A stretch of 64,000 nucleotides of DNA from the IMG/VR virus record IMGVR_UViG_3300037418_002332. One strand, written 5' to 3'. Of the stretch, positions 4,749 to 52,689 are shown one piece after another. This DNA is from a virus. Taxonomy: Duplodnaviria; Caudoviricetes. Positions within the stretch are counted from its first letter, which is position 1. Each line of letters begins with the position of its first letter. The notes under the pieces were generated by a model. The model worked only from the letters and a program-made list of their open reading frames with translations. It was not told the origin of the DNA and ran no database searches. The position numbers were made by a program, and so were the translations under genes.

Positions 4749-5804
4749 ATGATGCGTAAAGCTTTTGAGCTGATGAAAATTATGAACGACGCAGGTCGCG
4801 AAACCCGAATTGCTGGTGGTGCGGTCCGTGATACGGTCATGAGACAAAATCCAAAAGACATCGATCTGGCAACTGTCGCCAAGCCCGAAGAGGTTCGGGA
4901 AATCTTCACTAAACTGGGTCACTCAGTTATTGATACTGGGCTGCAACATGGTACTGTTACCGTGGTGATTGATCACATTCCATATGAAGTGACAACTCTG
5001 CGGGTTGATTCAAACCAGGATGGCCGTCATGCTGATGTGACTTTCACTGATAGTTTTGAGGAAGATGCAAAGCGTCGTGACTTCACGATGAATGCTATGT
5101 ACATGGATTACAATGGAGATATCCATGACTTCCATGAAGGGAAGCGTCATATTAATCAACAGATGATTTATTTTGTTGGTGATCCTGAACAACGTATCAA
5201 GGAAGATTATCTGCGCATCCTGCGTTATTTCAGGTTCATGGCTCGATTTAGATTTGGTCATGACTATAATGCGATGTATGCAATGGGTGATTTGCGTATG
5301 GGTCTGCATAAAATCTCCCATGAACGTATCTACTCAGAAATCATGAAGACTGCGCAAGTTAATGACACGCAAGTGTTCTATCTGATGAATAATTCATGCA
5401 TCAGTGAAGTTGTCTTCAATAAGAATCTGAAAACGGAAGAAACAACCCATACGAAACCCGAAATCACTCTGTTCATGAAGGGTATCGGTTCTAATTGGTT
5501 CCGTGAATTCAAGGCTCCTGCTGATGTGATCAAAACGATTGAATGGCATGAAAAGTTTCAGCCTTCCAATTTCAATTTTGATCTGTTCAAAAACGGTGCA
5601 GAACGTATGCGTGAATGGTGTTTCATCAATAATGTTCCTTGGGGTTCCAAGTTTGCTGAGGCACCGAAGTTTCCGCTGACTGGTCACGATTTTCCTCACC
5701 TGAAAGGCAAGGCAATTGGTGACAAACTGAAAGAACTGCAAAAGGTATGGGCTGAAAATAACTTCGAGCCCACGAAACAAGAACTGCTGAAGGAGAATGG
5801 TTAA
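4749..5804 (+). CDS. cca: CCA-adding tRNA nucleotidyltransferase (class II)
   Basis: GGAVRD, DIDLAT, EVTTLR, EDAKRRDFTMNAM, EDYLRILRYFRF. Confidence 0.9.
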   Translation: MMRKAFELMKIMNDAGRETRIAGGAVRDTVMRQNPKDIDLATVAKPEEVREIFTKLGHSVIDTGLQHGTVTVVIDHIPYEVTTLRVDSNQDGRHADVTFTDSFEEDAKRRDFTMNAMYMDYNGDIHDFHEGKRHINQQMIYFVGDPEQRIKEDYLRILRYFRFMARFRFGHDYNAMYAMGDLRMGLHKISHERIYSEIMKTAQVNDTQVFYLMNNSCISEVVFNKNLKTEETTHTKPEITLFMKGIGSNWFREFKAPADVIKTIEWHEKFQPSNFNFDLFKNGAERMREWCFINNVPWGSKFAEAPKFPLTGHDFPHLKGKAIGDKLKELQKVWAENNFEPTKQELLKENG

Positions 5805-9628: not shown

Positions 9629-9684
9629 AATTCTTCTGCCAAAGGAAGAATTCGCTTTACTCCATCCAGTCAATAAGCTATAAT
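9629..9684 (+). promoter_or_regulatory. early promoter with upstream dyad
   Basis: AATTCTTC-N8-GAAGAATT-cgc-TTTACT-N17-TATAAT. Confidence 0.75.
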
Positions 9685-23758: not shown

Positions 23759-24010
23759 ATGAATTTAGAAAAATATCCACTTGAAACTGAAAGCAAGGAA
23801 TTGCTTTACACACGATTGATGGAAGAATGTTCTGAGGTTGCTGTTGAGGCAGCATTGATTGCAAAGTATTGTTCCAAATCATTAAGGTTTGGCTTCAAAG
23901 AATTCGATCATGTTGATATGCTTGCCGCTTTGGAAGGACTTGAATCAGAAATGAAAGACGTTAAACTAATTGCGGCTGAAGTTAAACGCAGATGGGATAA
24001 CAATGAATAG
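23759..24010 (+). CDS. MazG-like NTP pyrophosphohydrolase
   Basis: LMEECSEV...KSLRFG...EMKDV. Confidence 0.6.
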   Translation: MNLEKYPLETESKELLYTRLMEECSEVAVEAALIAKYCSKSLRFGFKEFDHVDMLAALEGLESEMKDVKLIAAEVKRRWDNNE

Positions 24011-24455
24011 GCGTGGATTTTTAGGTTTCTTTGCTGGAAGTGCGGCATTGGGCAAATCGGCAGTTGTTGAGCTTGAAAAGACAATCCTTCAGGAAGGACT
24101 TACAGCTAAGAATGCTTTGAAGTTCTTGCCTTTGGGCAAAAATGCAAAAGAACAAGATGCATCACCAATAAAAAGCTCATACATTCCAGAAAATCCGTTT
24201 GAGACAATCAAGCGTTACAAAAAGCAATTGGAAAAACTTTCACGCAGACCCAATTCAGAAACATTGAGGGATGCAGCTGATTATCGGCGCAAAGAAGAAA
24301 TTGTGAATTTGATTTCAGTTTCAAAATCACACAAACATCGAATGATCAGTGATGTAGATTACGACAGTTCATATCGTTACAATGAATTCAAATATGGCCG
24401 CTGGATTAAGAATTTGGTGGCTGGTCGTGATGAATATGATGATGGAGAAGATTGA
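24003..24455 (+). CDS. hypothetical protein with twin-arginine-like N-terminus
   Basis: MNRRGFLGFFAGSAAL. Confidence 0.55.
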   Translation: MNRRGFLGFFAGSAALGKSAVVELEKTILQEGLTAKNALKFLPLGKNAKEQDASPIKSSYIPENPFETIKRYKKQLEKLSRRPNSETLRDAADYRRKEEIVNLISVSKSHKHRMISDVDYDSSYRYNEFKYGRWIKNLVAGRDEYDDGED

Positions 24456-24811
24456 TGATCATGTATATGATTCGCCACATTCCAACTAAACAAATTTCTG
24501 CTGGCGGCAGTTCACCATATGGAAACCCAAAAGCCGAAGGGAAAATGTATGCCGGAATGGGTGCATTGAAAAATCATCTCAATTTGGGGTTGAGTTTTTG
24601 GTATGGAATGAATCCAGTGTTGCTTCATCTGAGTTCTCAATTTGAACCATATCTTCAATCGGAATTGATTAAACTGGATACAGAAACCTTCAACGCTACA
24701 TATGATTCACAATTCATTCCTAATTATCTCAAAGAACGTGCCTGCAAGATGCTTCAGGAAAAACCATATTACGCGATTGATCCAGAAACAAAATTTAAGT
24801 TGGGAATCTAA
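24455..24811 (+). CDS. hypothetical protein
   Basis: coupled ORF. Confidence 0.55.
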   Translation: MIMYMIRHIPTKQISAGGSSPYGNPKAEGKMYAGMGALKNHLNLGLSFWYGMNPVLLHLSSQFEPYLQSELIKLDTETFNATYDSQFIPNYLKERACKMLQEKPYYAIDPETKFKLGI

Positions 24812-25182
24812 TGGCTGAAGAACGCAAACGCAGTGAAATGGAAAAACATTTGGATATGCTTGCCGCGCATCTAGATTACGATGAAGTTGCAATTCAAGCA
24901 ATCAAAGATTTGAGACGCGAAGCAAGTCAATATCAAGAACAACTTCATGCTCAAAAGAAAACTCTTGGTCGTGACGGTGCCGAACTAGGCAAGTGGATCA
25001 AGGAAGAAATCAAACAATACATGCGGTATGAAAAATCCGCAACGCTTTGGATTGATTGGTTCGAACGTGACGTCGATTTGTCATTCAAAGATTGGCCTGA
25101 AGAATATTATCCTGAACTTATGTACATTCACCGAACCTATTGGTTGAAACTGACGGAAAAATCATATGTCAAAAACAGTTGA
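24811..25182 (+). CDS. hypothetical protein
   Basis: coupled ORF. Confidence 0.55.
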   Translation: MAEERKRSEMEKHLDMLAAHLDYDEVAIQAIKDLRREASQYQEQLHAQKKTLGRDGAELGKWIKEEIKQYMRYEKSATLWIDWFERDVDLSFKDWPEEYYPELMYIHRTYWLKLTEKSYVKNS

Positions 25183-25399
25183 TCCTGAACCAACTCGTGT
25201 TGCTAACTGGAAAGCAAACATTGTCAATGGAGTTGATGAATACAATCGAAGGGTTGTGATTGAAACTGAAACCGACGATTTTGTCAGTGGCAAGTTCACT
25301 GAGATTGACGAATACACCTACAAGCACGACAAAGTGATAAGCGTGAAGCGAATTCCTACAACAATGCATTTTCATTACCGCAAGAAATCTTTGGCATAA
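25166..25399 (+). CDS. hypothetical protein
   Basis: coupled ORF. Confidence 0.5.
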   Translation: MSKTVDPEPTRVANWKANIVNGVDEYNRRVVIETETDDFVSGKFTEIDEYTYKHDKVISVKRIPTTMHFHYRKKSLA

Positions 25400-25401
25400 C
25401 C

Positions 25402-25457
25402 AAAGAAAGTGCTTTACTTTTCAACGGGTTAGTTTATAATGGTTGTATAAGGTGAAA
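25402..25457 (+). promoter_or_regulatory. early promoter with conserved leader
   Basis: AAAGAAAG-tgc-TTTACT-N16-TATAATGGTTGTATAAGGTGAAA. Confidence 0.8.
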
Positions 25458-25470
25458 TTAACTCGGTGAG

Positions 25471-25752
25471 ATGAAAGAAATGTCCTTCCCGATTCATCCT
25501 GATGATATGCCTTCTCCCCGCTTCGGTGGTTGGGCTGACGATTTCAATACTTATCGTGAAGCTTGCGAATATTACGGTTGTGATACTCCTGAGCAGATCG
25601 AAGCCGAAAATGAGTATTATGCTCGTGAGGAATATATCGCTTGGCAGGATGATCTGGAAACTCGCGGTCCTCGCATTCCTGAGGTTTTCGTTGAGCTTTC
25701 GGATGCTTCTCTTTGGAAGTCGTCTGCCTACGATGATGGTATTCCGTTTTGA
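25471..25752 (+). CDS. acidic hypothetical protein
   Basis: first ORF after early promoter. Confidence 0.6.
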   Translation: MKEMSFPIHPDDMPSPRFGGWADDFNTYREACEYYGCDTPEQIEAENEYYAREEYIAWQDDLETRGPRIPEVFVELSDASLWKSSAYDDGIPF

Positions 25753-25758
25753 GGTGAG

Positions 25759-25971
25759 GTGATGGACCGCGACACGGTAAAAGAAGAAATTCTTAGAGAT
25801 CTTAAGGGTCTCACCGATGGTCGCTATTTCACCAGAGTTTCGAAAGGTCTTGGACAATTGTTCCGTGAAATGGAACAGAATGGTTTAATCAAAATCAACA
25901 AGGTTTTGATTGAAGGCCGGAAACATCGTATAACGCAAGTCATTGCGTTGATGGAGAAACTCGATGGGTGA
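25759..25971 (+). CDS. hypothetical protein
   Basis: GAGG SD. Confidence 0.5.
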   Translation: MMDRDTVKEEILRDLKGLTDGRYFTRVSKGLGQLFREMEQNGLIKINKVLIEGRKHRITQVIALMEKLDG

Positions 25972-26145
25972 AAAAGTCACAGTTCAGAGACTTGAACTCG
26001 ATGACCGTGAGTTGGAGGACTATCTGTCCACCGCTTACGAAAACGGAAGCGAATTGCTGAGTCTCCAGCAAATTCCGAATGATAGTGGAGAGATTCGAAT
26101 TCGTGATGAACCTCTTCATAAATTTCTCATCGTGTTGAGGGAACT

Positions 26146-26424
26146 ATGATCAACATTATTCCTGGAACGGGTGTCCTGATTGAACGTGGCTCTGGAAAGT
26201 ATCTTGAGATCACGGAAGCAGTTGATGTGAAATTTCAATCCAGCTGGCAAAATGCTACTGTGATTGAGAAAGTGAAGTGGGATAATCCTGACTTGCGTCA
26301 ACAGATGATCGACTTCCATGAATTGAATTACACGGCTCATACATTGGAATTTGTTCCAATGGAAAAGTTGCTCGATCCTTTCGGGGATTGGCCTGAGCCT
26401 GATGAGGGTGACATGCGTCACTGA
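26146..26424 (+). CDS. hypothetical protein
   Basis: GAGG SD. Confidence 0.5.
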   Translation: MINIIPGTGVLIERGSGKYLEITEAVDVKFQSSWQNATVIEKVKWDNPDLRQQMIDFHELNYTAHTLEFVPMEKLLDPFGDWPEPDEGDMRH

Positions 26425-26430
26425 AGTTTT

Positions 26431-26565
26431 GCGGTATCAGTAAGCGAAAGCCTTAGAAACCTTTGTGAAGTGCGCATTACACAAAGGCAGACTCTGGTTA
26501 GTAGTGAGGTGGTCCTTCTGAGCGTGTTCATCACGTGGGGAGTTCGATCCTCTCCTACCGCTCCA
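26431..26565 (+). ncRNA. 135-nt tRNA-like RNA with encoded CCA
   Basis: 5' GCGGTA pairs with 3' TACCGC; discriminator T then CCA; T-arm GGGAG-TTCGATC-CTCTC; extra internal hairpins and no canonical anticodon arm. Confidence 0.65.
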
Positions 26566-26596
26566 AAGTTTCTATTTGGTGTAAAAGCTAAATAGG

Positions 26597-26664
26597 ATTG
26601 TTGCCGTTGATATTTCAACGTTAAGGTGTGGAACACGCGGGTGCAATTCCCGCCGTCTCCACCA
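26597..26664 (+). ncRNA. ssrA: two-piece (permuted) tmRNA, acceptor piece (5' end approximate)
   Basis: GCGGG-TGCAATT-CCCGC T-arm, CGTCTCC-A-CCA; GTGTGGA pairs with TCCGCGC of the coding piece. Confidence 0.85.
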
Positions 26665-26799
26665 TGGCTAAAACGAGACTGGACTGGTCATGTTTACATG
26701 ATTCGGAAAAGCGTACAGATGTTATGTTAGTTAGTCAATAATCTTCGAGAAATCGCCATTATTGAGGTTGACATAGCTTGAAATCGTTTTAGCTTTGAT

Positions 26800-26980
26800 G
26801 GGGACGAATTAGGATCGACTCCGCGCGCATAGGAAGAAAAGTAGGCAATTCGCTGACCGAGCGGTCAAACAAAATAAAGGACAACGATAACTTCGTTCCT
26901 ATGGCAGTTGCTGCGTAAGCAGTAGACTCCAATGAGCTTTTGCCGGTTTTGGCTTGGAAACAGAACAAAACCGGCATTCA
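26800..26980 (+). ncRNA. ssrA: two-piece tmRNA, coding piece; tag (A)DNDNFVPMAVAA at 26880-26918
   Basis: GGGGACG completes a 7-bp acceptor with G3:U70; GAATTAGGATCGAC; alphaproteobacterial-type tag; terminal TGCCGGTTTTG/CAAAACCGGCA hairpin. Confidence 0.85.
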
Positions 26981-27038
26981 TTACATTCAACGAAGATTTC
27001 TCTTTACTCAATGAAATGTTTCAGTTATTGTTATTATA

Positions 27039-27221
27039 GTGGTAATGGAGATTGAAATGGCCGCTATTTCTGACGCTGAATGGGTAAAGCTGGTTCGTGA
27101 TGAGGTGTTGCGGGCTTTGATGCTTTCGCCTCTGACTAAAAATGAAATTTTGGATCTTCTTGATTCTCTGCGCGCTGAAGTGGCTGCGCAGCCGGTTTCT
27201 AAGGTGACTCCTTCGGTCTGA
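27039..27221 (+). CDS. hypothetical protein
   Basis: ORF after GAAGATTT-ctc-TTTACT promoter. Confidence 0.5.
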   Translation: MVMEIEMAAISDAEWVKLVRDEVLRALMLSPLTKNEILDLLDSLRAEVAAQPVSKVTPSV

Positions 27222-27233
27222 GGTTCTTTTAAT

Positions 27234-27875
27234 ATGCTGATGTTTTCTGATGAATTCCACCAGTGGGCTGGATTTCGCTTCGAAGAGTTTAAATCAATCT
27301 GTCAGAAAATTTCCAGAGAACTTGATCTCCAACAGGAATTTATCGACATTGGTGTTGCACCAGATGTTGCTGATGCTGTTGCTGAAGGCAACATTGGTGA
27401 AGTCAAGCGAGTAACGTTCAACAGTAGGGAACGGTTTCATTCTGTTTACGAATTTGCCTATGTAGCGGCGCATGAAATGCGACATATTTGGCAATATGCG
27501 AACAAAGTTTTTTCGCCTTGGACATTCTATCCCAGTGGTGCTTATATTGGATGCGATCGGTTTGGTGTTTGGAAAAACTGTTTGATTTTCATTCCTAGCA
27601 ATAAAACTGACAGCGATCATTTTTGTCATCCTTTCGAGATTGACGCTAACGAATATGCGCATCGATTTGTCTCTAACATTGAGGCCGATCGTGAAAATTC
27701 GAAAGAAACTTTTTGGTCCGGGTTGGTTGATAAAATCATGGGCCATTATGAAATCTACGGTTTCAATGATACGCTTGAACAGAGAAAAGCGAGTAAAGCA
27801 TATCACGACTTTGAAACCGTAGAATTGGCAGTCAATCAGTTGAAGCATCATGGTTGTGAAATAGAGGATTATTGA
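27234..27875 (+). CDS. zincin-like metallopeptidase-domain protein
   Basis: AHEMRHIWQ (HExxH) and PFEIDANEYA (third ligand E). Confidence 0.7.
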   Translation: MLMFSDEFHQWAGFRFEEFKSICQKISRELDLQQEFIDIGVAPDVADAVAEGNIGEVKRVTFNSRERFHSVYEFAYVAAHEMRHIWQYANKVFSPWTFYPSGAYIGCDRFGVWKNCLIFIPSNKTDSDHFCHPFEIDANEYAHRFVSNIEADRENSKETFWSGLVDKIMGHYEIYGFNDTLEQRKASKAYHDFETVELAVNQLKHHGCEIEDY

Positions 27876-27876
27876 T

Positions 27877-28542
27877 ATGAAACGTTTTGGGGAATCGTTG
27901 ATTTTGGCCTTTGTTCTGACATACTTTTCGTATGGCATTGGCCAGTATATGGGTTGGGTCAAGGAACTCAATCTGATGGAAATTTTCTCAGTGTTCACGA
28001 CATACTCATGTACTTACATGTGTGTGAAGCAGACGCGCTGGAATTATCCAATGGGAGCACTGGCGACAGCTTCGCTTTGCTATGTGTTTTATCAGGCTGA
28101 TCTACTAGGTCAGGCTGCTCAGAATGCACTGCTTACACCTTGGCTATTGTATGGATGGTTTCGTTGGCGTGCTGATGCGATCACTCGTCCAGTTACCAGT
28201 GTTTTCTCTGATTCCAAGGTTTGGTTGACAGGTTATGTCGGTCTGACTGCAATCAGCTATCTGGTTTGCCTGAAAGCGATCGAAGCTTATGGTGGAACGA
28301 TGGCTCCACTAGATACTCTGATTCTAGTTCTTTCAATTCTGGCACAAATCATGCTTGATAACAAGAAACTGGAAAATTGGTATCTATGGGCAGTGGTCAA
28401 TGTGATTGCGATCTACGTCAACTTCGAAGCACTTCCAATGGTTGCAATGCAGTTCGTGTTCCTACTCGCTAACACTGTCTGGGGTTGGTCTGATTGGGCT
28501 CATTCTCAGAATCAGGATAAGAAAGAACTTGCAAATGTATGA
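27877..28542 (+). CDS. pnuC: nicotinamide riboside transporter PnuC
   Basis: 7 TM; WNYPMG, YGWFRW, LDTLILVLSILAQ, KKLENWYLWAVVN. Confidence 0.85.
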   Translation: MKRFGESLILAFVLTYFSYGIGQYMGWVKELNLMEIFSVFTTYSCTYMCVKQTRWNYPMGALATASLCYVFYQADLLGQAAQNALLTPWLLYGWFRWRADAITRPVTSVFSDSKVWLTGYVGLTAISYLVCLKAIEAYGGTMAPLDTLILVLSILAQIMLDNKKLENWYLWAVVNVIAIYVNFEALPMVAMQFVFLLANTVWGWSDWAHSQNQDKKELANV

Positions 28543-29575
28543 CGGCATCCTTTTGATGACGGCTCTTCTTCCGACGCGTGGGCACCAGTATCTTATTGAC
28601 TTCGCGTCGGAATATGCGGGCGGGAAATTGCTGGTGATTATCAGTTCCCGCTCCAAGGAGCCGATCGCTGGTGAAGATCGTTACAAAGCTTTTCGCAAGC
28701 ACTATCTTCACAATCCAAAGGTCATCATCCAGTTGATGGAAGATGATGACGCTCCGCAGAATCCTTCGGGTCCAGATGATGAACCATTTTGGGCATATTG
28801 GAAGAATGTGATGGTGACATATGCTCGTCGTCACGGCATCAGCGATATTCGTGAAGTGTATGCGTCTGAACCATATGGGCAAAAGCTGGCTGATTTGGTT
28901 GGTGCGCGTTTCGTTCCTTGCGATATTGCTCGACAAATTCTTCACATTTCGTCAACCGAAGTCCGTCAGGATACAGTGAAGCACTTTCATCAAATTTTGC
29001 CTGAAATGCAGCAGCACTTCCAAACGCGAGTGACGATCTTTGGTGCTGAGTCGTGCGGTAAAACAACGATGGCCAAGAAGCTTCATACTGAATATGACAG
29101 TTATTTCGTTCCTGAATGGGCAAGGGAATTCCTTGAAACAGTTGGAACTGAAATCACTGAAGAAAAGATGGAAACGATTTATCTTGCTCAGTATGCATCT
29201 CAGAAGGCAACCGCAGCCTTGGGTGGTGTTCCGTACATTTTCCAAGACACTGATTTGCTTTCAACGATTGGATATTACAAGATCATGGGTTACATGGTTC
29301 ACCCATTGCTGGTTCAATTGTTCAATGAAACTAAGTCTGATCTTTACATCGTGATGAACGATGGAATTCCTTTTGAGAAAGATCCTTTGCGTTATGGTGG
29401 TGATGTTCGCCAGAGCGGAACCCAATTTTGGATTGATTTGCTCGAAAAATATGAATGCAATTATTATGTTGTTCAAAATCGTGAGCGAGACTATCAATTG
29501 GGTGAAGTGAAATTTGAAATTGATCGCTTTACGAAAGATAAATTCAAGCCTATAGTGGATTTCCAACGCGAATAA
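28535..29575 (+). CDS. nadR: NadR-like NMN adenylyltransferase / ribosylnicotinamide kinase (no HTH)
   Basis: LPTRGH, YASEPYG, ISSTEVR; GAESCGKTT, PEWARE, DTD, DPLR. Confidence 0.85.
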   Translation: MYDGILLMTALLPTRGHQYLIDFASEYAGGKLLVIISSRSKEPIAGEDRYKAFRKHYLHNPKVIIQLMEDDDAPQNPSGPDDEPFWAYWKNVMVTYARRHGISDIREVYASEPYGQKLADLVGARFVPCDIARQILHISSTEVRQDTVKHFHQILPEMQQHFQTRVTIFGAESCGKTTMAKKLHTEYDSYFVPEWAREFLETVGTEITEEKMETIYLAQYASQKATAALGGVPYIFQDTDLLSTIGYYKIMGYMVHPLLVQLFNETKSDLYIVMNDGIPFEKDPLRYGGDVRQSGTQFWIDLLEKYECNYYVVQNRERDYQLGEVKFEIDRFTKDKFKPIVDFQRE

Positions 29576-29590: not shown

Positions 29591-29863
29591 ATGTTCTTTT
29601 GTTATAGTGACAGTGCTGAACCGTTCACCGGATCGATCACAAAACTTGATCCGAATAAATGTTTTATGAAGCATTATGGAAATTCATTGTATTTGAATTT
29701 CATCTTCAACTCTTCAACGGATGGTGTTGAAAGGCGACAAGCTAACAAAGAAATCCAAATGGCTGATAAAAAGATGGCCTACTGGAGAAAGCATCCAGAT
29801 TTTAGTCTGGCTATCGTCGAACCGAAAATGAAAGCTGAAAAAGCAAAATGGCGCACGACCTAA
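29591..29863 (+). CDS. hypothetical protein
   Basis: GGAGG SD. Confidence 0.55.
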   Translation: MFFCYSDSAEPFTGSITKLDPNKCFMKHYGNSLYLNFIFNSSTDGVERRQANKEIQMADKKMAYWRKHPDFSLAIVEPKMKAEKAKWRTT

Positions 29864-31008
29864 AACTCTTCAATTCATTGACTGGGTCTAAAGATGTGTT
29901 CGTTCCTATGGACGATCAAAGTGTTAAGATGTATGTCTGTGGACCAACTTTATATGCACCATTGCATGTTGGCAATCTCCGACCAATGATCGTTTTTGAT
30001 CTGTTATATCGCATTTTGCGTGAATTGTATGGTATAGATCAAGTCATCTATGCACGCAATATCACAGATTATGATCAAAAGGTCATGACTGCGGTGAACA
30101 ACAGTTCCCTTGATTTCTCGACATTCATGTCAAGTCAAATTCAAGAATTCAATGCCTATGAAACTTTGTTAGGATTGATACCACCTGATTTTGAGCCGCG
30201 TGTAACAAAATATGTCACAAGCATTCGTACATATATCAACAAGTTGACTGAAAAAGGCAAAACATACGAAATTGATGGTATCATCTATTTGAGAAATCGT
30301 GCATTCAATGTTGGAATGCTTTCACGCAAACCTTATGTTGATTTAACACATAACAGAATTGAACCTGATCCAAACAAGGAAGACCCAAGGGATTTCATTC
30401 TTTGGAAACCAATTCCAAACGATTACGAATTTGGATTTGAATATCCTGAATCATCACCATTGCATTCAACGGAAGCCAAAGGCCAACCTGGATGGCACAT
30501 TGAATGTTCAGCAATGGCTGAAGAAGTTCTTGGATCAAAGATTGATATTCATGGTGGTGGTGAAGACTTGATGTTTCCTCATCATGAGAACGAAATTTCA
30601 CAATGCTATGCTCGTCATGGTCATTTTATGTCCAAGTTTTGGCTCCACAATGGATTTGTTACCAATTCTAAAGGTCAAAAATTTGGCAAAAGTCTGGACA
30701 ATGCAATTACAGTCAATGAAGCATTGAACAAATTTGGCGGTGAAGTGATTCGCTTTTATATGTTGATGACTCATTACCGCAGTCCAAAAACTTGGTCCCT
30801 TGAAGGATTGGTAGAAGCTCAAACTATTTTTATGAAATTCCAAAATTTGACTCATGGTGTTTTCCATCCGTACAACAAACCACCAACCGAGTTTTGGGAT
30901 GCCTTGATGAATGATATGAATACGCCATTGGCAATTGCGAAGATGCATGAGTATGCGAAGAAGGACATTTTCAGTTTAGATATCTGCATGCGTTGGCTTG
31001 GATTTTAG
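29848..31008 (+). CDS. cysS: cysteinyl-tRNA synthetase homolog lacking the C-terminal anticodon-binding domain
   Basis: YVCGPT, HVGN, DFILWK, GQPGWHIECSAM, DIHGGGEDLMFPHHENE, KFGKS, DALMNDMNTP; stops at 386 aa. Confidence 0.9.
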   Translation: MAHDLKLFNSLTGSKDVFVPMDDQSVKMYVCGPTLYAPLHVGNLRPMIVFDLLYRILRELYGIDQVIYARNITDYDQKVMTAVNNSSLDFSTFMSSQIQEFNAYETLLGLIPPDFEPRVTKYVTSIRTYINKLTEKGKTYEIDGIIYLRNRAFNVGMLSRKPYVDLTHNRIEPDPNKEDPRDFILWKPIPNDYEFGFEYPESSPLHSTEAKGQPGWHIECSAMAEEVLGSKIDIHGGGEDLMFPHHENEISQCYARHGHFMSKFWLHNGFVTNSKGQKFGKSLDNAITVNEALNKFGGEVIRFYMLMTHYRSPKTWSLEGLVEAQTIFMKFQNLTHGVFHPYNKPPTEFWDALMNDMNTPLAIAKMHEYAKKDIFSLDICMRWLGF

Positions 31009-32695: not shown

Positions 32696-33754
32696 ATGCC
32701 TCGCATAAATCAATACGACTACGCAGTTTTCATGGGACGATTTGAACCATACCACGATGGACATCATACGATCGTCCTACGTGCATTGGAAGTTGCTGAC
32801 AAACTAATCTTGGTAATGGGTTCGGACAACCGTCCACGCACTATCAAAAATCCATTCAGTTCGGATGAACGACGCGCCATGATCATGGCAGCATTGACAC
32901 CTGAACAGATCGAACGTGTGTATTTTGTTGCGCAAGAAGATTACTATTACAGTGACACCAAGTGGCTGGAAAGTGTTCAGAAGAAAATCCAGACCATCGT
33001 TTGGGAAAAGTTCAATCCTGATCCAATCAAAATCACTCTGATTGGACACAAAAAGGACAATAGTTCATATTACATTGATCTTTTCCCTCAATGGGCCTTT
33101 ACGGATGTGCAAAATCATAATATGCTGTCCGCTACAAATATTCGTAACGCAATGTTCAACGGTAAAGTTGAAGGTTGGGGACCAGCGTTATGGAATCAAG
33201 TTCCTGAAGGCACACATGCTTATCTCGAACAACTTCGAATATCAAAGATCAATGAGTTCGTTTCACTGAATCGTGAATGGGCTTTCATTGAGAAATACAA
33301 GGAACAGTGGAAGTCTGCTCCATATGCACCAACCTTTGTGACTTGTGATGCGACTGTTATCCAGTCAGGTCACGTATTGCTGGTGAAGCGTCGGGCTGAA
33401 CCTGGCAAAGGTCTTTGGGCTGTTCCTGGTGGGTTCTTGAATCCAGGCGAACGAATCAAAGATGGTATTTTCCGTGAGTTGAAGGAAGAAACCAAAATTG
33501 ACGTTCCTGAAAAGGTTCTTCGTGGTTCGCTCCGTGGAATCAAAGTGTTTGACCATCCGGATCGTTCATTGCGTGGACGCACTATCACGCACAATGCTTT
33601 GATCGTTCTACCGAATGGTTCACTGCCAAAAATCAAAGGCAGTGATGACGCAGAAGTTGCCAAGTGGACACCACTTGGTGAAGTGAATTCTTCAAATATG
33701 TTTGAGGATCATTATGATATGGTTCAAATTCAAAAAGATCTCGTAACTGGCTGA
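32696..33754 (+). CDS. nadM: bifunctional NMN adenylyltransferase / ADP-ribose Nudix hydrolase (NadM-Nudix)
   Basis: GRFEPYHDGH, KNPF, SATNIR; Nudix GLWAVPGG..GE...RELKEET, GSDDA. Confidence 0.92.
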   Translation: MPRINQYDYAVFMGRFEPYHDGHHTIVLRALEVADKLILVMGSDNRPRTIKNPFSSDERRAMIMAALTPEQIERVYFVAQEDYYYSDTKWLESVQKKIQTIVWEKFNPDPIKITLIGHKKDNSSYYIDLFPQWAFTDVQNHNMLSATNIRNAMFNGKVEGWGPALWNQVPEGTHAYLEQLRISKINEFVSLNREWAFIEKYKEQWKSAPYAPTFVTCDATVIQSGHVLLVKRRAEPGKGLWAVPGGFLNPGERIKDGIFRELKEETKIDVPEKVLRGSLRGIKVFDHPDRSLRGRTITHNALIVLPNGSLPKIKGSDDAEVAKWTPLGEVNSSNMFEDHYDMVQIQKDLVTG

Positions 33755-42599: not shown

Positions 42600-43772
42600 A
42601 TGGCAGGCTTTGAAGTTAAGATTGTGAAGATCGATGATGTTATCGATCACCCAAATGCTGATCGCCTTTCTTTGGTGAAGATCGCTGGCTATTCGGTTGT
42701 TTCCGGTAAGCTGGAGGATGGGTCACATCGTTACAAAGCCGGTGATTTGGTTGCATATGTTCCAGAAAATGCAGTCGTTCCTGAATACCTTTTGAAGAAA
42801 GGTTATTGGAACGATAACGAAAACAAGGGAATGTTGGCTGGTAAGAACGGTGATCGAGTGAAGCCTATAAAGCTTCGCGGCGTCATTTCTGAAGGCATTA
42901 TGTTCCCTGTTACCGATCATGTTGAGCCGACTGGAAACGTTTTGAAAGCAATTGATGGTCCAATGCGTTATGTTGACGGCATTGGTGAAGTCAAGAGCAA
43001 AAAGATCGTTGAAGAAGGCGATGAAGTTTCAGAGTATCTTGGCATCACCAAGTATGAACCTGAAATTCCGGCAACCATGGCTGGAGACGTGATCGGTCGA
43101 ATTGATCTACCAGTGAAGTATGATATCGAAAACATCAAGAAATACGATCGTGTGTTTGATGTGGGTGATGACGTTTACATGACTGAAAAGCTTCATGGAA
43201 CACAAGCTCAATTCGGGTGGCTTCCAAATGGTAATGATCCAGAACTAATCGAAGGCCAGTTCTTCGCAGCGTCCAAAGGCATCGCCTCACAAGGATTGGT
43301 GTTCAAGGATACTGAACAGAACCGAACCGCAAATCTTTATGTCAAGACTTTGATCAGTATGATCGACAAAATCAAAATGCTAAAGGATTTTGCATCAGAA
43401 ACGTCCAAGGTTGTATTGTTTGGTGAAATCTTCGGCAAGGGAATTCAAGACCTTGGCTACAATGAAGACAAGCCAACATTCCGAGTGTTTGATATCTGGA
43501 TGGATGGTTCATTCTTGGACTTCAATGATTTGATGCGGATTTGCGATTACGCAGAGATTCCTATGGTGCCAATTCTTTATGTTGGTCAATTCACATGGGA
43601 AGATCTAAAGCGTGAGACAGCCGGCAAGTCTAAACTGGGTGGAACTCACATTCGTGAAGGCGTCGTTGTTAAACCTTTGAAGGAACGCACTAACGAATGG
43701 ATTGGCCGTGTCATTCTGAAGTCAATCTCAGATGAGTATCTTGGTCGAAAGAACGGAACAGAGTACAACTAA
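42600..43772 (+). CDS. RNA ligase, DRB0094/Rnl2-like family
   Basis: N-term HPNADRL OB module; TEKLHGT, FGEIFG, FDI, REGVVVK, LKSISDEYL. Confidence 0.88.
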   Translation: MAGFEVKIVKIDDVIDHPNADRLSLVKIAGYSVVSGKLEDGSHRYKAGDLVAYVPENAVVPEYLLKKGYWNDNENKGMLAGKNGDRVKPIKLRGVISEGIMFPVTDHVEPTGNVLKAIDGPMRYVDGIGEVKSKKIVEEGDEVSEYLGITKYEPEIPATMAGDVIGRIDLPVKYDIENIKKYDRVFDVGDDVYMTEKLHGTQAQFGWLPNGNDPELIEGQFFAASKGIASQGLVFKDTEQNRTANLYVKTLISMIDKIKMLKDFASETSKVVLFGEIFGKGIQDLGYNEDKPTFRVFDIWMDGSFLDFNDLMRICDYAEIPMVPILYVGQFTWEDLKRETAGKSKLGGTHIREGVVVKPLKERTNEWIGRVILKSISDEYLGRKNGTEYN

Positions 43773-44628: not shown

Positions 44629-45576
44629 ATGTTTTTAATTGGTTCCCGCGCTGCCGTTGAGCGTGGTCTCAAACTCAATCGTCCAGTTGACCAATCAGAT
44701 TGGGATATCATTGGCACAAAAGCTGAGATGGATTTTTTCCTTCTTAGATGGAAAGATGCCAAGGTCAAGGAATCAGGATTTCCTGGTAAATATCATATCA
44801 CCTTGCCGACTGGCATTAAAATTGAATTTGATGCAACCAACAATTTGAGCAATCATCTTTTAAACGCTCAACTGAATTCATGCAAGCCTGTTACAGTCAA
44901 AATCGAAGATTTCAAAGTTTTGTTTTTTGTTCCGTCACAGGAAACTTTATTTCAAATCAAACGTTCACATGCTAACTTTGATGTTCATTTCATGAAGACC
45001 ATCATGGATGTAAGAGCCATGATGAAGCAATGGAATATCACTGATCCAGCTGCTGAACGTCAGCATAACTTCTATCATGCTCGTCATGATGAAGCAAAAG
45101 CAAGATTTGGCAAACGGCAGGAACGAATCAAACTTGCTAAAACTAATGAAGCATTTTTCAAAGGTGGTGAAAAGCTTCGCACCTATGTTCATGATGATTT
45201 ACACCGAGCAGTGGCTTCAGAAGATCGACCATTGTTTGAGAAATGCAAGGTGGATTTGGAAAGTGCGTTTGTGTCGAAGGATATTTTCTTCAACAAATTC
45301 ACTCAAGAACAGCGCTTGAATATGGCTATGGAAGAATCAATGGTCATTGCGTTGGAACGGGAATATATTCCAAACCGCAAGGAAGGTCAACTTCCAACGG
45401 AACGTATGGCGTTGGATATGTATCGCAAAGGCATGTTGAAAGAAATCAAAGACCTATCAAAAGGATGGTTTCAAGATTTCATGATCGACAATATTTTGGA
45501 ATTGGAAAAGCCAAAGTGGAATTATATCGAAAGATTTGAAACTGCATTGGCTGACGGAAGGATTAGAACAGTATGA
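44629..45576 (+). CDS. phage protein with nucleotidyltransferase-like N-terminus
   Basis: LIGSRAA...SDWDII (GS/DxD); YVHDDLH. Confidence 0.55.
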   Translation: MFLIGSRAAVERGLKLNRPVDQSDWDIIGTKAEMDFFLLRWKDAKVKESGFPGKYHITLPTGIKIEFDATNNLSNHLLNAQLNSCKPVTVKIEDFKVLFFVPSQETLFQIKRSHANFDVHFMKTIMDVRAMMKQWNITDPAAERQHNFYHARHDEAKARFGKRQERIKLAKTNEAFFKGGEKLRTYVHDDLHRAVASEDRPLFEKCKVDLESAFVSKDIFFNKFTQEQRLNMAMEESMVIALEREYIPNRKEGQLPTERMALDMYRKGMLKEIKDLSKGWFQDFMIDNILELEKPKWNYIERFETALADGRIRTV

Positions 45577-50942: not shown

Positions 50943-51523
50943 GTATGGATTTATTTGAATCAAGTTTGGTCGAATTGACCAAAAGCATCATGTCTGAGAA
51001 TATCACATTTGCTGAGGTTGGTGAGGATGAAAAAATGCCGTGGCATAAACGGCATTATGAGAAAAGAATCTCTAAGGTCATCCTTTATTTGGAACAGGAA
51101 GGCAAGTGTTGCTTTTGTTCCGTTCGAATGTATGCCCATGCTAGTGGTAATCCCAAGCAGGATTCAGCTACCATTGAACATGTTCAATGCAGGCAGCACG
51201 GCGGCAAGGATGATATCAGCAATTACAAACTTTCCTGCTATATGTGCAACAATCTTCGTGGCACAATGGATTATGACGCATTCTTTGAATTGATCCAAAA
51301 ATACGGAAGAAATGGCTATAATTTGATCCAAAAAGCAGTTAAAAAGGATAGGAAGAATCAAGCTAAGGAACGCAAAAAAGCTAACGAGCTTGAGCAGCAA
51401 AGAATTGCTAAACTGCTTGGTGAAGAGAAAGCTAGGAAGAAACAAGAAAATAAGCAGCGCATGATGTTTGAGATGGCATATGGCGCATTGTACAAGTCGG
51501 CAATCTATAGGAAAGCGGCATGA
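50939..51523 (+). CDS. HNH endonuclease
   Basis: EQEGKCCFC, ATIEHV..HGG...SCYMCNNLRG. Confidence 0.8.
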   Translation: MSMDLFESSLVELTKSIMSENITFAEVGEDEKMPWHKRHYEKRISKVILYLEQEGKCCFCSVRMYAHASGNPKQDSATIEHVQCRQHGGKDDISNYKLSCYMCNNLRGTMDYDAFFELIQKYGRNGYNLIQKAVKKDRKNQAKERKKANELEQQRIAKLLGEEKARKKQENKQRMMFEMAYGALYKSAIYRKAA

Positions 51524-52689
51524 TCTACGATTTTGCAAATATCAAGACGATCGATCCAATCCTTGAAGTAATCAAGGACAAGCCAGAGTTCATCGTTGCA
51601 AACCGTGATTGGTACAATATCGTCAATTACATGGTGAACAAGGAAGACACGTTTCCAAATATCACGTCTCAGACCAACAAGAAGGAATTGCCAAAAGCTG
51701 TCCTGCTTCGCGAACTTCGTGGCATTGCGTTTGACGAAAATGGTGAAATCATCCATCGTTCATTGCACAAGTTCTTCAATTTGAATGAACGTCATGAAAC
51801 GATGCAACGTTTGATTGATTTCAAGGAACCACATGTGATGCTCGATAAGCTGGACGGTTCTATGCTTCGTCCATTGTTTAACCGTCAACACAATGGCTTC
51901 CGTATGGCAACCAAGATGGGTGTGACGGATGTTGCTTTCAATGCTGAGGTTTTCGTTTCTGAAAATCCAAAGTATTTCAAGCTGTTTCGTTATTGCTGGG
52001 ATAATGGTTTATCACCAACTTTCGAGTGGTGTTCTGAGCTCAATCGTATCGTCATTCTGTATAAGGACGACAATTTGGTGTTGACTGCTATTCGTGGACT
52101 TCACGACGGTAAGTACATGCCATACCATGAGATGGTTGATCTTGGTGCAAAGTTTGACATTCCAGTGGTCGGTGCTCATGACTCAGTCACAGACATCGAT
52201 GCTTTCTTGGCAAAGTTGAATGATTACACTAATATCGAAGGCTTCATAGTTCGTTTCGACACCGGTCAAATGTTGAAGATCAAGACGGATGAATATTGCT
52301 TGCAACACAAGTCCAAGGATATTGTTTCCTCAAAGAGGCAAATCATTGAACTCGTTTTGGATGAGAAAATCGATGACATCAAGCCGCGCTTGATTCAAGA
52401 AGATCTCGACAAGGTTGCCGGTGTAGAAAAAGAAGTTTTTGATGTAATTCAATCAATGTCCACGAAACTGAATGACGTGCATGCGCGTTATAAGCATATG
52501 GACAAGAAGAACTTCGCTCTGAACATTGCTGACAAGTTGACTCCTTTCGAAAGAAAGGGTTTCTTCTCAATGATGGACGGCAAGCAGCCAATTGAATTGG
52601 TTCGTCAATTCTTGAGGTCAAATGTTGGCAACAACGTAAAGCTTCAAGCCCTGAAGGATCAGTACAAGGTCTTCGTTGACGCGGAATGA
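51520..52689 (+). CDS. rnlA: RNA ligase 1 (T4 RnlA-like)
   Basis: RELRGIAF, KFFNLNE, DKLDGS, TFEW, EGFIV, KIKTDEY. Confidence 0.9.
   Translation: MIYDFANIKTIDPILEVIKDKPEFIVANRDWYNIVNYMVNKEDTFPNITSQTNKKELPKAVLLRELRGIAFDENGEIIHRSLHKFFNLNERHETMQRLIDFKEPHVMLDKLDGSMLRPLFNRQHNGFRMATKMGVTDVAFNAEVFVSENPKYFKLFRYCWDNGLSPTFEWCSELNRIVILYKDDNLVLTAIRGLHDGKYMPYHEMVDLGAKFDIPVVGAHDSVTDIDAFLAKLNDYTNIEGFIVRFDTGQMLKIKTDEYCLQHKSKDIVSSKRQIIELVLDEKIDDIKPRLIQEDLDKVAGVEKEVFDVIQSMSTKLNDVHARYKHMDKKNFALNIADKLTPFERKGFFSMMDGKQPIELVRQFLRSNVGNNVKLQALKDQYKVFVDAE

Follow-up and report, generated by a model that had tools for sequence, protein, structure and literature searches.

Non-decoding, tRNA-shaped modules that adjoin another RNA are familiar from mitochondrial tRNA punctuation, from MALAT1/mascRNA and from the tRNA-like/precursor microRNA units of murine gammaherpesvirus 68, and there a cut by RNase P or RNase Z sets the end of the RNA. 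Phages of the T4 type offer a second comparison in RNA C, which to our knowledge has had no known function for fifty years. RNA C of phage T4 (rnaC, or species 1 RNA) has been described as a stable RNA of unknown function (PMC3014915, PMC9697503). Here we describe a 135-nucleotide (nt) element that carries the top half of a tRNA and lies directly upstream of a circularly permuted, two-piece transfer-messenger RNA (tmRNA) gene. The element is found in a 64,000-nt stretch of phage DNA, hereafter the window, which is part of a 247-kb IMG/VR phage record (IMGVR_UViG_3300037418_002332; 97% complete). It shares with the modules named above a non-decoding tRNA shape next to another RNA. Those modules are eukaryotic or organellar, whereas here the neighbor is a phage two-piece tmRNA, the CCA is encoded, there is an extra body of 100 nt, and the processing is something that we infer. 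We tentatively favor, with a probability of roughly 0.4, the reading that the element is tRNA-shaped punctuation, at which RNase P and 3' trimming would free the tmRNA precursor and leave a stable, CCA-ended RNA.

A tRNA top half without decoding arms

The element begins 6 nt after the TGA stop codon (26422-26424) of an upstream open reading frame (ORF) of 92 amino acids, with U at position -1, and it occupies the gap between that stop and the tmRNA exactly. A first-pass annotation, made by reading the letters of the window, had placed the element directly upstream of the tmRNA, and the Rfam alpha_tmRNA match does begin at 26566. At its ends the element has the parts expected of a canonical tRNA: an acceptor stem, a T-arm whose loop fits UUCRANY, and NCCA. 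The acceptor stem GCGGUA/UACCGC (3' strand at 26556-26561) consists of six Watson-Crick pairs and is followed by a discriminator U at 26562 and an encoded CCA at 26563-26565. The seventh acceptor layer is a U.C mismatch; alternatively, G107-C125, in element numbering, lengthens the T-stem to six pairs. Between the tRNA-like ends lies a body of about 100 nt that has neither a D-arm nor an anticodon arm, and the element contains no D-loop GG able to reach the T-loop. The public gene caller places no gene over 26431-26565, and the two ORFs that overlap the element, 26418-26636 on the minus strand and 26470-26595 on the plus strand, match no PHROG family.

Could such a pair of ends arise by chance? 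A stringent motif (a 5-bp T-stem with G53-C61, a TTCRANN loop, 7 nt, N and CCA) occurs 28 times in the genome, 27 of them within the tRNA array, and the sole copy outside the array is this element. The number expected outside the array is 0.04 per genome, from 200 first-order Markov resamples of the remaining genome. With a 6-bp Watson-Crick partner 60-220 nt upstream the expectation falls to 0.0, the combination never having appeared in the 200 resamples. The tRNA top half is therefore real, and the acceptor stem, U73, encoded CCA and canonical T-arm that the first-pass annotation had listed are all present.

For the interior, the minimum free energy and ensemble folds concur on the acceptor (1-6/126-131), a helix (7-25/75-91), a hairpin (30-57), an unpaired stretch (58-74), a 5-bp hairpin (92-106) and the T-arm (107-125). 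The long interrupted helix 7-25/75-91 has pair probabilities of 0.73-1.0 in the thermodynamic ensemble, and tandem A.G pairs could form in its A18-A19/G81-G82 internal loop. The 8-bp hairpin with UGCGCA in its loop and the GCGUG/CACGU hairpin, both of which had been noticed earlier, can be read in the element (Table 1). Two further features proposed with them, a GAAA-capped hairpin and a weak third stem, each have an ensemble pair probability of 0.0. As a whole the RNA folds modestly better than shuffled versions of itself (z -2.1), and its loops are no more complementary to the tmRNA region or to the rest of the genome than shuffled loops are. Because there are no homologues to compare, the interior structure stays a prediction.

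Table 1. Coordinates of the tRNA-like element and of the features around it
Feature	Position in window	Strand	Basis
tRNA-like RNA gene, 135 nt (element positions 1-135)	26431..26565	+	sequence reading, own descriptor scan, chance estimate
Acceptor 5' strand GCGGUA (G1-C72, C2-G71, G3-C70 etc.)	26431..26436	+	pair probabilities 0.88-1.0
Predicted long arm: interrupted helix 7-25/75-91, apical 8-bp hairpin and 17-nt unpaired stretch	26437..26521	+	minimum free energy and ensemble folds; z -1.1
8-bp hairpin CCUUUGUG/CACAAAGG with 12-nt loop AAGUGCGCAUUA containing UGCGCA	26460..26487	+	sequence, ensemble fold; z -3.2
Predicted unpaired stretch CAGACUCUGGUUAGUAG	26488..26504	+	ensemble fold
5-bp hairpin GCGUG-UUCAU-CACGU, where the anticodon/variable arm would be	26522..26536	+	sequence, ensemble fold
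T-arm GGGAG-UUCGAUC-CUCUC	26538..26554	+	sequence reading, descriptor scan
Acceptor 3' strand UACCGC, discriminator U, encoded CCA	26556..26565	+	sequence reading
Lineage-specific block, six small orphan ORFs, element at its 3' end	24812..26430	+	comparison with relatives
Spacer from element to first tmRNA helix, 34 nt, A/U-rich; GCTAAATA at the place of the relatives' box TATAAATA	26566..26599	+	alignment with L221, L222, L224
Circularly permuted two-piece tmRNA; acceptor piece ends 26664, coding piece from 26800, tag DNDNFVPMAVAA	26566..26976	+	Rfam, ARAGORN
CCA-adding enzyme and three RNA ligases	4749-5804; 1361-2374; 42600-43772; 51520-52689		profile matches

Is the element simply a tRNA that has been missed? 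By default ARAGORN calls neither a tRNA nor a tmRNA on it, and the fits obtained with the threshold lowered to 50-70% are forced. A search of an 801-nt slice against Rfam at E<=10 places no family on 26431-26565, RF00005 (gathering threshold 29 bits) and the tmRNA models included; the same Rfam tRNA model recovers 28 tRNAs in the phage's array. The element has no D-arm with G18G19, nor an anticodon stem of 5 bp that closes a 7-nt loop (U33, purine 37). The earlier statement that a normal anticodon arm is lacking thus stands, and the description of the element as a tRNA-like, non-decoding RNA gene is supported.

We also considered that the element might be an intron-containing or otherwise decoding tRNA, or an attachment-site copy of the 3' end of a host tRNA-Gly. 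With relaxed settings and introns allowed, ARAGORN does fit a tRNA-Thr(GGU) with a 50-nt intron, and integration scars in bacterial genomes can indeed consist of partial tRNA-Gly 3' ends. The threonine fit is forced, however, with the intron between positions 31 and 32, a C at 37 and a poor D-arm, and the phage already owns a tRNA-Thr(GGU); as an ordinary intron-containing tRNA the element fails. Nor can a glycine anticodon be read in a U33-type loop. Against an attachment site, neither a tyrosine nor a serine recombinase (integrase, resolvase) is encoded in the genome, which is 97% complete, and the 3' 22-mer of the element, GAGTTCGATCCTCTCCTACCGC, matches 0 of 185,579 species genomes, so that the element is unlikely to be an attachment-site copy of a host tRNA. 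We give this whole group of readings very little credence.

Insertion at the tmRNA promoter and a proposed processing role

How did a tRNA-like element come to lie beside tmRNA? The contigs L221-L224, which come from relatives, have the gene order of the window, namely an NMT1-like gene, an ORF of 113 amino acids (118 in L222), tmRNA, an ORF of 236-298 amino acids, PnuC and NadR, and the shared order continues with a 90-amino-acid ORF, a cysteinyl-tRNA synthetase (CysRS) and nicotinamide adenine dinucleotide salvage genes. A permuted tmRNA lies in the syntenic gap of L221, L222 and L224, the three that were searched, with Rfam scores of 87-96 bits, the tag DNDNFVPMAMAA and a coding piece 85-86% identical to that of the window. 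The tmRNA of the window itself scores 77 bits with RF01849 and 81.8 bits with RF04321, and its first helix starts near 26600. In L221 no more than about 45 nt separate the stop codon of the upstream ORF (5354-5356) from the first helix of the tmRNA, and TTTACT-N17-TATAAATA lies in this gap; L222 and L224 align with this arrangement. TTTACT-N17-TATAAATA reads as a sigma-70-like promoter and a T4 late-promoter box. None of the three relatives has a T-arm and NCCA motif near its tmRNA, or a blastn match to the element.

The relatives' 113-amino-acid ORF beside the tmRNA corresponds to 24455-24793 of the window, with 38% identity, and in the relatives only the promoter lies between this ORF and the tmRNA. 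The segment 24812-26565, about 1.75 kb, is therefore a lineage-specific insertion. The insertion has displaced the tmRNA promoter, which goes beyond what the first-pass annotation had seen: in the window GCTAAATA stands at the promoter box, and the element has taken the place of the -35 part. Promoter prediction gives no promoter-like site from 25441 to 27010. A candidate promoter, TTTACT-N16-TATAAT, is found at 25413-25440, where promoter-like sites are no commoner than in shuffled sequence.

A further contig, which belongs to a closer relative and was seen in soil runs X7 and X8, shares about 95% identity with the window over 26567-26692, a stretch that takes in the tmRNA acceptor piece, and its sequence before 26567 is unrelated. 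Since the match begins only at 26567, the junction is variable even among close kin. The window contains 8 copies of the motif AAGATTTCTCTTTACT, whereas 1.2 are expected; downstream of the tmRNA the motif is present, at 26993-27008, and upstream it is missing. Plus-strand copies lie at 9646, 26993, 37451, 48141, 57844, 58201 and 59216, and in the relatives the motif makes up the upstream/-35 part of TTTACT-N17-TATAAT-type promoters that flank the tmRNA. AAGATTTCTCTTTACT is probably the early promoter signature of this phage group, and gene cassettes may also recombine there. In the window the tmRNA has an intervening segment (26665-26799) of 135 nt; by alignment this segment is roughly half as long or less in L221, L222 and L224.

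What would a tRNA-like element do at such a junction? Because the cassette displaced the tmRNA promoter, the tmRNA precursor would have to arise by read-through. Cassette, element and tmRNA precursor would be transcribed together from an upstream promoter, for which 25413-25440 is the candidate. Host RNase P would recognize the stack of 12 acceptor/T layers together with the UCCA end, and would cut just before G26431, and ordinary tRNA 3'-end maturation would cut after the CCA, in the A/U-rich spacer. The two cuts would part the mRNA from the tmRNA precursor, and the acceptor piece would receive a processed 5' end instead of a transcription start. Shielded by its tRNA-like ends, the 135-nt RNA so released would probably accumulate as a stable RNA in the manner of T4 RNA C.

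We favor this punctuation role because nothing but the element can be recognized as a processing signal between the tmRNA and the last stop codon of the cassette, because the element carries the features that RNase P uses (the 12-layer acceptor/T stack, U at -1 and the NCCA end), and because the promoter has been displaced. All but two of the phage tRNAs called by ARAGORN end in an encoded CCA, so that the RNA genes of this phage evidently mature through the tRNA pathway, and a CCA-adding enzyme is encoded as well. T4 RNA C shows that stable RNAs about 140 nt long, with a like outline, are made by T4-type phages. If processing does take place as proposed, this would be tRNA punctuation in a bacterial virus, with a tRNA-shaped module setting the 5' end of the ribosome-rescue RNA. 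If the RNA also acts alone, it would join the growing set of phage tRNA-based counter-measures.

Several points weigh against a processing role. Although the anatomy, the insertion and the lost promoter are observed, all of the RNA processing is what we infer from what is established about how tRNAs mature. There is no covariation to draw on, because the phage, viral-contig, metagenome and genome collections yielded no homologue. The job could be done by a plain tRNA or a short minihelix, which leaves the 100-nt body unexplained and gives room to the relic, glycine-linked and RNA C kinship alternatives weighed below. Over shuffled sequence the interior fold has only a slight advantage (z -1.1 to -1.7), and a residual promoter may persist in the spacer at 26566-26599. 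The closer relative of soil runs X7 and X8 has no tRNA-like end at this junction, and the element is therefore dispensable. Finally, we scanned 120 viral-contig loci that hold permuted tmRNA genes for an upstream partner: a tRNA lies within about 475 nt upstream of the acceptor piece in just 2 of 113 genes (L067 and L085). Those two carry identical tRNA and tmRNA genes, and the partner is an ordinary 91-nt tRNA-Ile(UAU). It follows that tmRNA generally needs no such partner.

The first-pass annotation had counted a lack of covarying homologues among the outcomes that would tell against its proposal, and that is the outcome so far: no homologue turned up anywhere, and the syntenic relatives are without the element. 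A blastn search with 26300-27100 of 50,697 phage records found no homologue, and an exact 29-mer of the 3' end of the element had no match in viral contigs. The degenerate pattern GTTCGATCCNNNNNTACCGCTCCA found only ordinary tRNA-Gly genes, their fragments and chance coding matches. Patterns built on tmRNA (a 29-mer and a 38-mer) found no homologue of the element in metagenome contigs, and the 30-nt sequence upstream of the tmRNA in the close relative found nothing in viral contigs. Near-identical contigs of the same phage offered no informative variation, and among public sequencing runs no RNA run was listed as holding the phage. Protein searches with the flanking ORFs of 213 and 92 amino acids returned only the queries themselves; searches with the 213-amino-acid ORF and a helicase revealed no relative locus, and a search of viral contigs for the CysRS locus gave bacterial-type genes only.

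One would think that such an isolated element might be a functionless relic: a gene derived from a glycine tRNA and scrambled when the cassette was inserted, with ends that are intact through recency, perhaps still cut, and under no selection. Its absence from every available relative and from the phage, viral-contig, metagenome and genome collections would fit, as would an interior fold that is not significantly stable and the lack of an anticodon arm and of a D-loop GG to reach the T-loop. Other features speak against a relic. The acceptor strands, T-arm, U73 and CCA are flawless though 135 nt apart, and chance supplies no 5' partner. A simple insertion into a tRNA-Gly gene would leave D and anticodon arms, none of which is seen. 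The element moreover fills the gap between ORF stop and tmRNA exactly, and T4-type phages have conserved, stable RNAs of this outline. We consider a relic doubtful, though by no means far-fetched. The case for the element as a tRNA-shaped processing signal is itself a lead, resting on one lineage.

Glycine identity, RNA C and tmRNA as points of comparison

The acceptor end is of a glycine type, and it is natural to ask whether the element could be charged. We sought the pattern GTTCGATCC-N5-TACCGCTCCA in genome and viral collections. It has 25 bacterial matches, of which 18 are complete genes, all 18 of them tRNA-Gly (CCC, GCC or UCC); the other seven have no ARAGORN tRNA call, some being truncated tRNA-Gly 3' ends and others looking like chance matches. 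The viral matches are tRNA-Gly in 7 of 7 cases. As every complete gene with this T-loop and end (25/25) is a tRNA-Gly, the glycine identity suggested by the first-pass annotation holds. The phage's own two tRNA-Gly genes likewise start with GCGG and have U73. In bacteria the glycine determinants are U73, G1-C72 and C2-G71 together with C35 and C36, and the TacT toxin reads U73 plus G71 (PMC9976931). The element has U73, G1-C72 and C2-G71; it has no C35/C36, since no NCC triplet lies in a U33 loop. It thus carries the acceptor half of glycine identity without the anticodon half. With bacterial and phage tRNA-Gly it has in common the GCGGUA/UACCGC acceptor, U73, CCA and the T-loop, but it differs from them in having no D-arm, anticodon arm or C35/C36, in its length of 135 nt against 74-78 nt, and in having no Rfam tRNA match.

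These determinants raise the possibility that host glycyl-tRNA synthetase charges the element, which might then serve off the ribosome as a decoy or sponge (for a TacT-type acetyltransferase or CCA-directed toxins) or as a glycine donor. The first-pass annotation had likewise conjectured a donor or decoy role, and possibly dimers formed by kissing loops. G1-C72, C2-G71, G3-C70 and U73 are all there, the 25 of 25 count points the same way, and the determinants include those that TacT reads (PMC9976931). The phage also invests heavily in tRNA repair and supply, with some 40 tRNAs, three RNA ligases and a CCA-adding enzyme. On the other hand, charging would be inefficient because C35 and C36 are absent, the genome encodes no FemAB-type aminoacyl-tRNA transferase, and relatives manage without the element. 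A glycine-linked role is, in our judgment, improbable. We hold it similarly improbable that the 135-nt RNA is an independent, glycine-chargeable, non-decoding tRNA mimic, made in bulk from the tmRNA transcript, that sponges acceptor-reading enzymes and toxins or carries glycine. Were such a mimic real, it would supply a function to test for RNA C-like phage RNAs.

A truncated CysRS lies 3.3 kb downstream of the element and has two relatives of the same length, with 45-46% identity, which led to the contigs L221-L224. All three (window 29848-31008, L221:8573-9730 and L224:3647-4813; 385-388 amino acids) are without the anticodon-binding domain. Since the truncated enzyme is kept at that length in relatives that have no element, it is not the element's dedicated partner.

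How close is the likeness to RNA C? T4 RNA C occupies 70908-71046 of AF158101 and is 139 nt long; the first-pass annotation had called it CCA-ended, but the T4 record has no encoded CCA. We gathered seven RNA C homologues from six genera, in which 22 pairs show double changes in the consensus. The consensus has a 7-layer acceptor (fully paired in Yersinia phage TG1 through compensatory changes), a long arm, a second hairpin and a T-arm. The arm loops UUGACG/CGUCAA are complementary in 7 of 7, with a co-change to UUGAUG/CAUCAA in TG1. RNA C is presumably excised by the tRNA-processing enzymes in T4-type phages. The homologues stand unannotated between tRNA genes in several Tevenvirinae genera (L179:2909-3046 on the minus strand, and L180-L185).

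The element and RNA C have in common a size of about 140 nt and an acceptor stem and T-arm that enclose two non-tRNA arms, predicted ones in the element, with no anticodon. In contrast, there is no detectable sequence or profile homology, the covarying 6-nt loop-loop complement of RNA C has at best a doubtful candidate in the element, and RNA C lies inside a tRNA cluster and is conserved across genera, whereas the element is a singleton outside the tRNA array. Might it nevertheless be a true member of the RNA C family, diverged beyond recognition and with the same function? The size (135 versus 138-141 nt) and the order of acceptor stem, long arm, second hairpin and T-arm are in keeping with this, and the tRNA region of the phage holds no other RNA C homologue. 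A covariance model made from the seven homologues, however, which gives T4 itself 152 bits, returns only noise over 24000-29000, the best weak match near the element being 26377-26511 (3.3 bits, E 5.4), offset from it. For the UUGACG/CGUCAA hallmark the sole candidate counterpart, GUGAA (35-39)/UUCAU (97-101), has three bases in a predicted stem, which would have to melt, and by our estimate about 0.3 such pairs, or roughly one in three, are expected by chance. Position outside the tRNA array counts against kinship as well, which we judge distinctly improbable. In outline the element appears to resemble RNA C, but it is not a demonstrable family member. It is a second, apparently unrelated RNA of this outline, and one whose glycine-type end and former promoter site make hypotheses testable.

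A last comparison is with the tRNA-like domain of tmRNA and with mini-tmRNAs made of that domain only. Like them, the element has an acceptor/T minihelix that leads, without a D-stem, into a long helix, and it lies beside a tmRNA gene; it differs in its G3-C70 pair, in lacking the tmRNA D-loop motif and in having no Rfam match. Could it be a miniature, one-piece rescue RNA, composed of a tRNA-like domain, a P2-like helix, a hairpin, and a frame GCA GAC UCU GGU with the stops UAG UAG UGA? The stretch CAGACUCUGGUUAGUAG with its adjoining bases does spell these codons and stops, the four-codon frame sits in sequence predicted to be unpaired, a genuine tmRNA is alongside, and ARAGORN at a 60% threshold calls a tmRNA with the tag ADSG and three stops. 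The same call reports 'Tag not identified', however, and no Rfam tmRNA model matches at E<=10; pseudoknots were not searched for, and a minimum free energy fold cannot predict them. The third acceptor pair, G3-C70, is not the alanine-identity G3.U70 of tmRNA that alanyl-tRNA synthetase requires. The element is missing the motif GGAUCGAC, found behind the acceptor strand in the tmRNA of this phage as well as in the two Rfam consensus sequences, and no SmpB gene was found in the phage genome. Like the intron and attachment-site readings, a miniature tmRNA is unlikely, and it is the reading in which we place the least faith.

Two other candidates were tried and rejected. For a Y RNA/YrlA, the genome has no TROVE (Ro) gene, the two ends of the RNA pair into an acceptor stem that leaves the CCA free, and Rfam gives no match. 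For a UGA suppressor, in which the UUCAU hairpin would supply the anticodon UCA, the flanking ORFs end in TGA, the loop would have 5 nt and there would be no variable region.

tRNA and RNA-repair genes of the phage

The phage has 33 tRNAs by ARAGORN and seven more by our own descriptor. Its genes include one for a CCA-adding enzyme (PF01743, 115 bits) and three for RNA ligases, of which two are PF09414 and one is T4 Rnl1-like, and from their profile matches these four proteins would make up a full tRNA end-repair kit.

Several of the tRNAs are themselves unusual. Three tRNA-Arg genes without a 5' D-arm (CCU, ACG and UCU) are found at L186:2204-2281, L186:12360-12437 and L186:13700-13781, that is, at 33203-33280, 43359-43436 and 44699-44780 of the genome, outside the window. 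In these the anticodon arm is enclosed by a stem of 3-4 bp that comes right after position 9, and downstream of the arm there is a D-loop-like stretch with GG. All three were missed by ARAGORN, and two are just above the Rfam threshold. The 91-nt tRNA-Ile has a UAU anticodon arm and a second hairpin with a GAU loop; it occurs at L187:1163-1253 (genome 46962-47052), L067:4120-4210 and L085:2243-2333, and in L067 and L085 the permuted tmRNA of another phage follows it at a distance of 19 nt. Also missed by ARAGORN were a tRNA-Phe(GAA) with a 6-bp D-stem (L186:11358-11435), an 83-nt Leu(UAA)-like tRNA (L186:8850-8932) and a tRNA-Ser(UGA) (L187:1255-1341). With the missed tRNAs counted, tyrosine is the only amino acid for which no tRNA was found. 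A tRNA with a CUA anticodon, of the amber suppressor type and labeled 'Pyl' by ARAGORN, lies at L186:5523-5599 (genome 36522-36598).

One more RNA deserves mention. At L002:6256-6349 (IMGVR_UViG_3300029826_000145) there is an RNA of about 95 nt, GGGGACG...GUCUCCACCA, that looks like the tRNA-like domain of tmRNA alone. It has no tag region and no ARAGORN call. It carries a tmRNA-type D-loop motif, and it has an exact 29-nt T-arm/acceptor sequence in common with the tmRNA of the phage described here.

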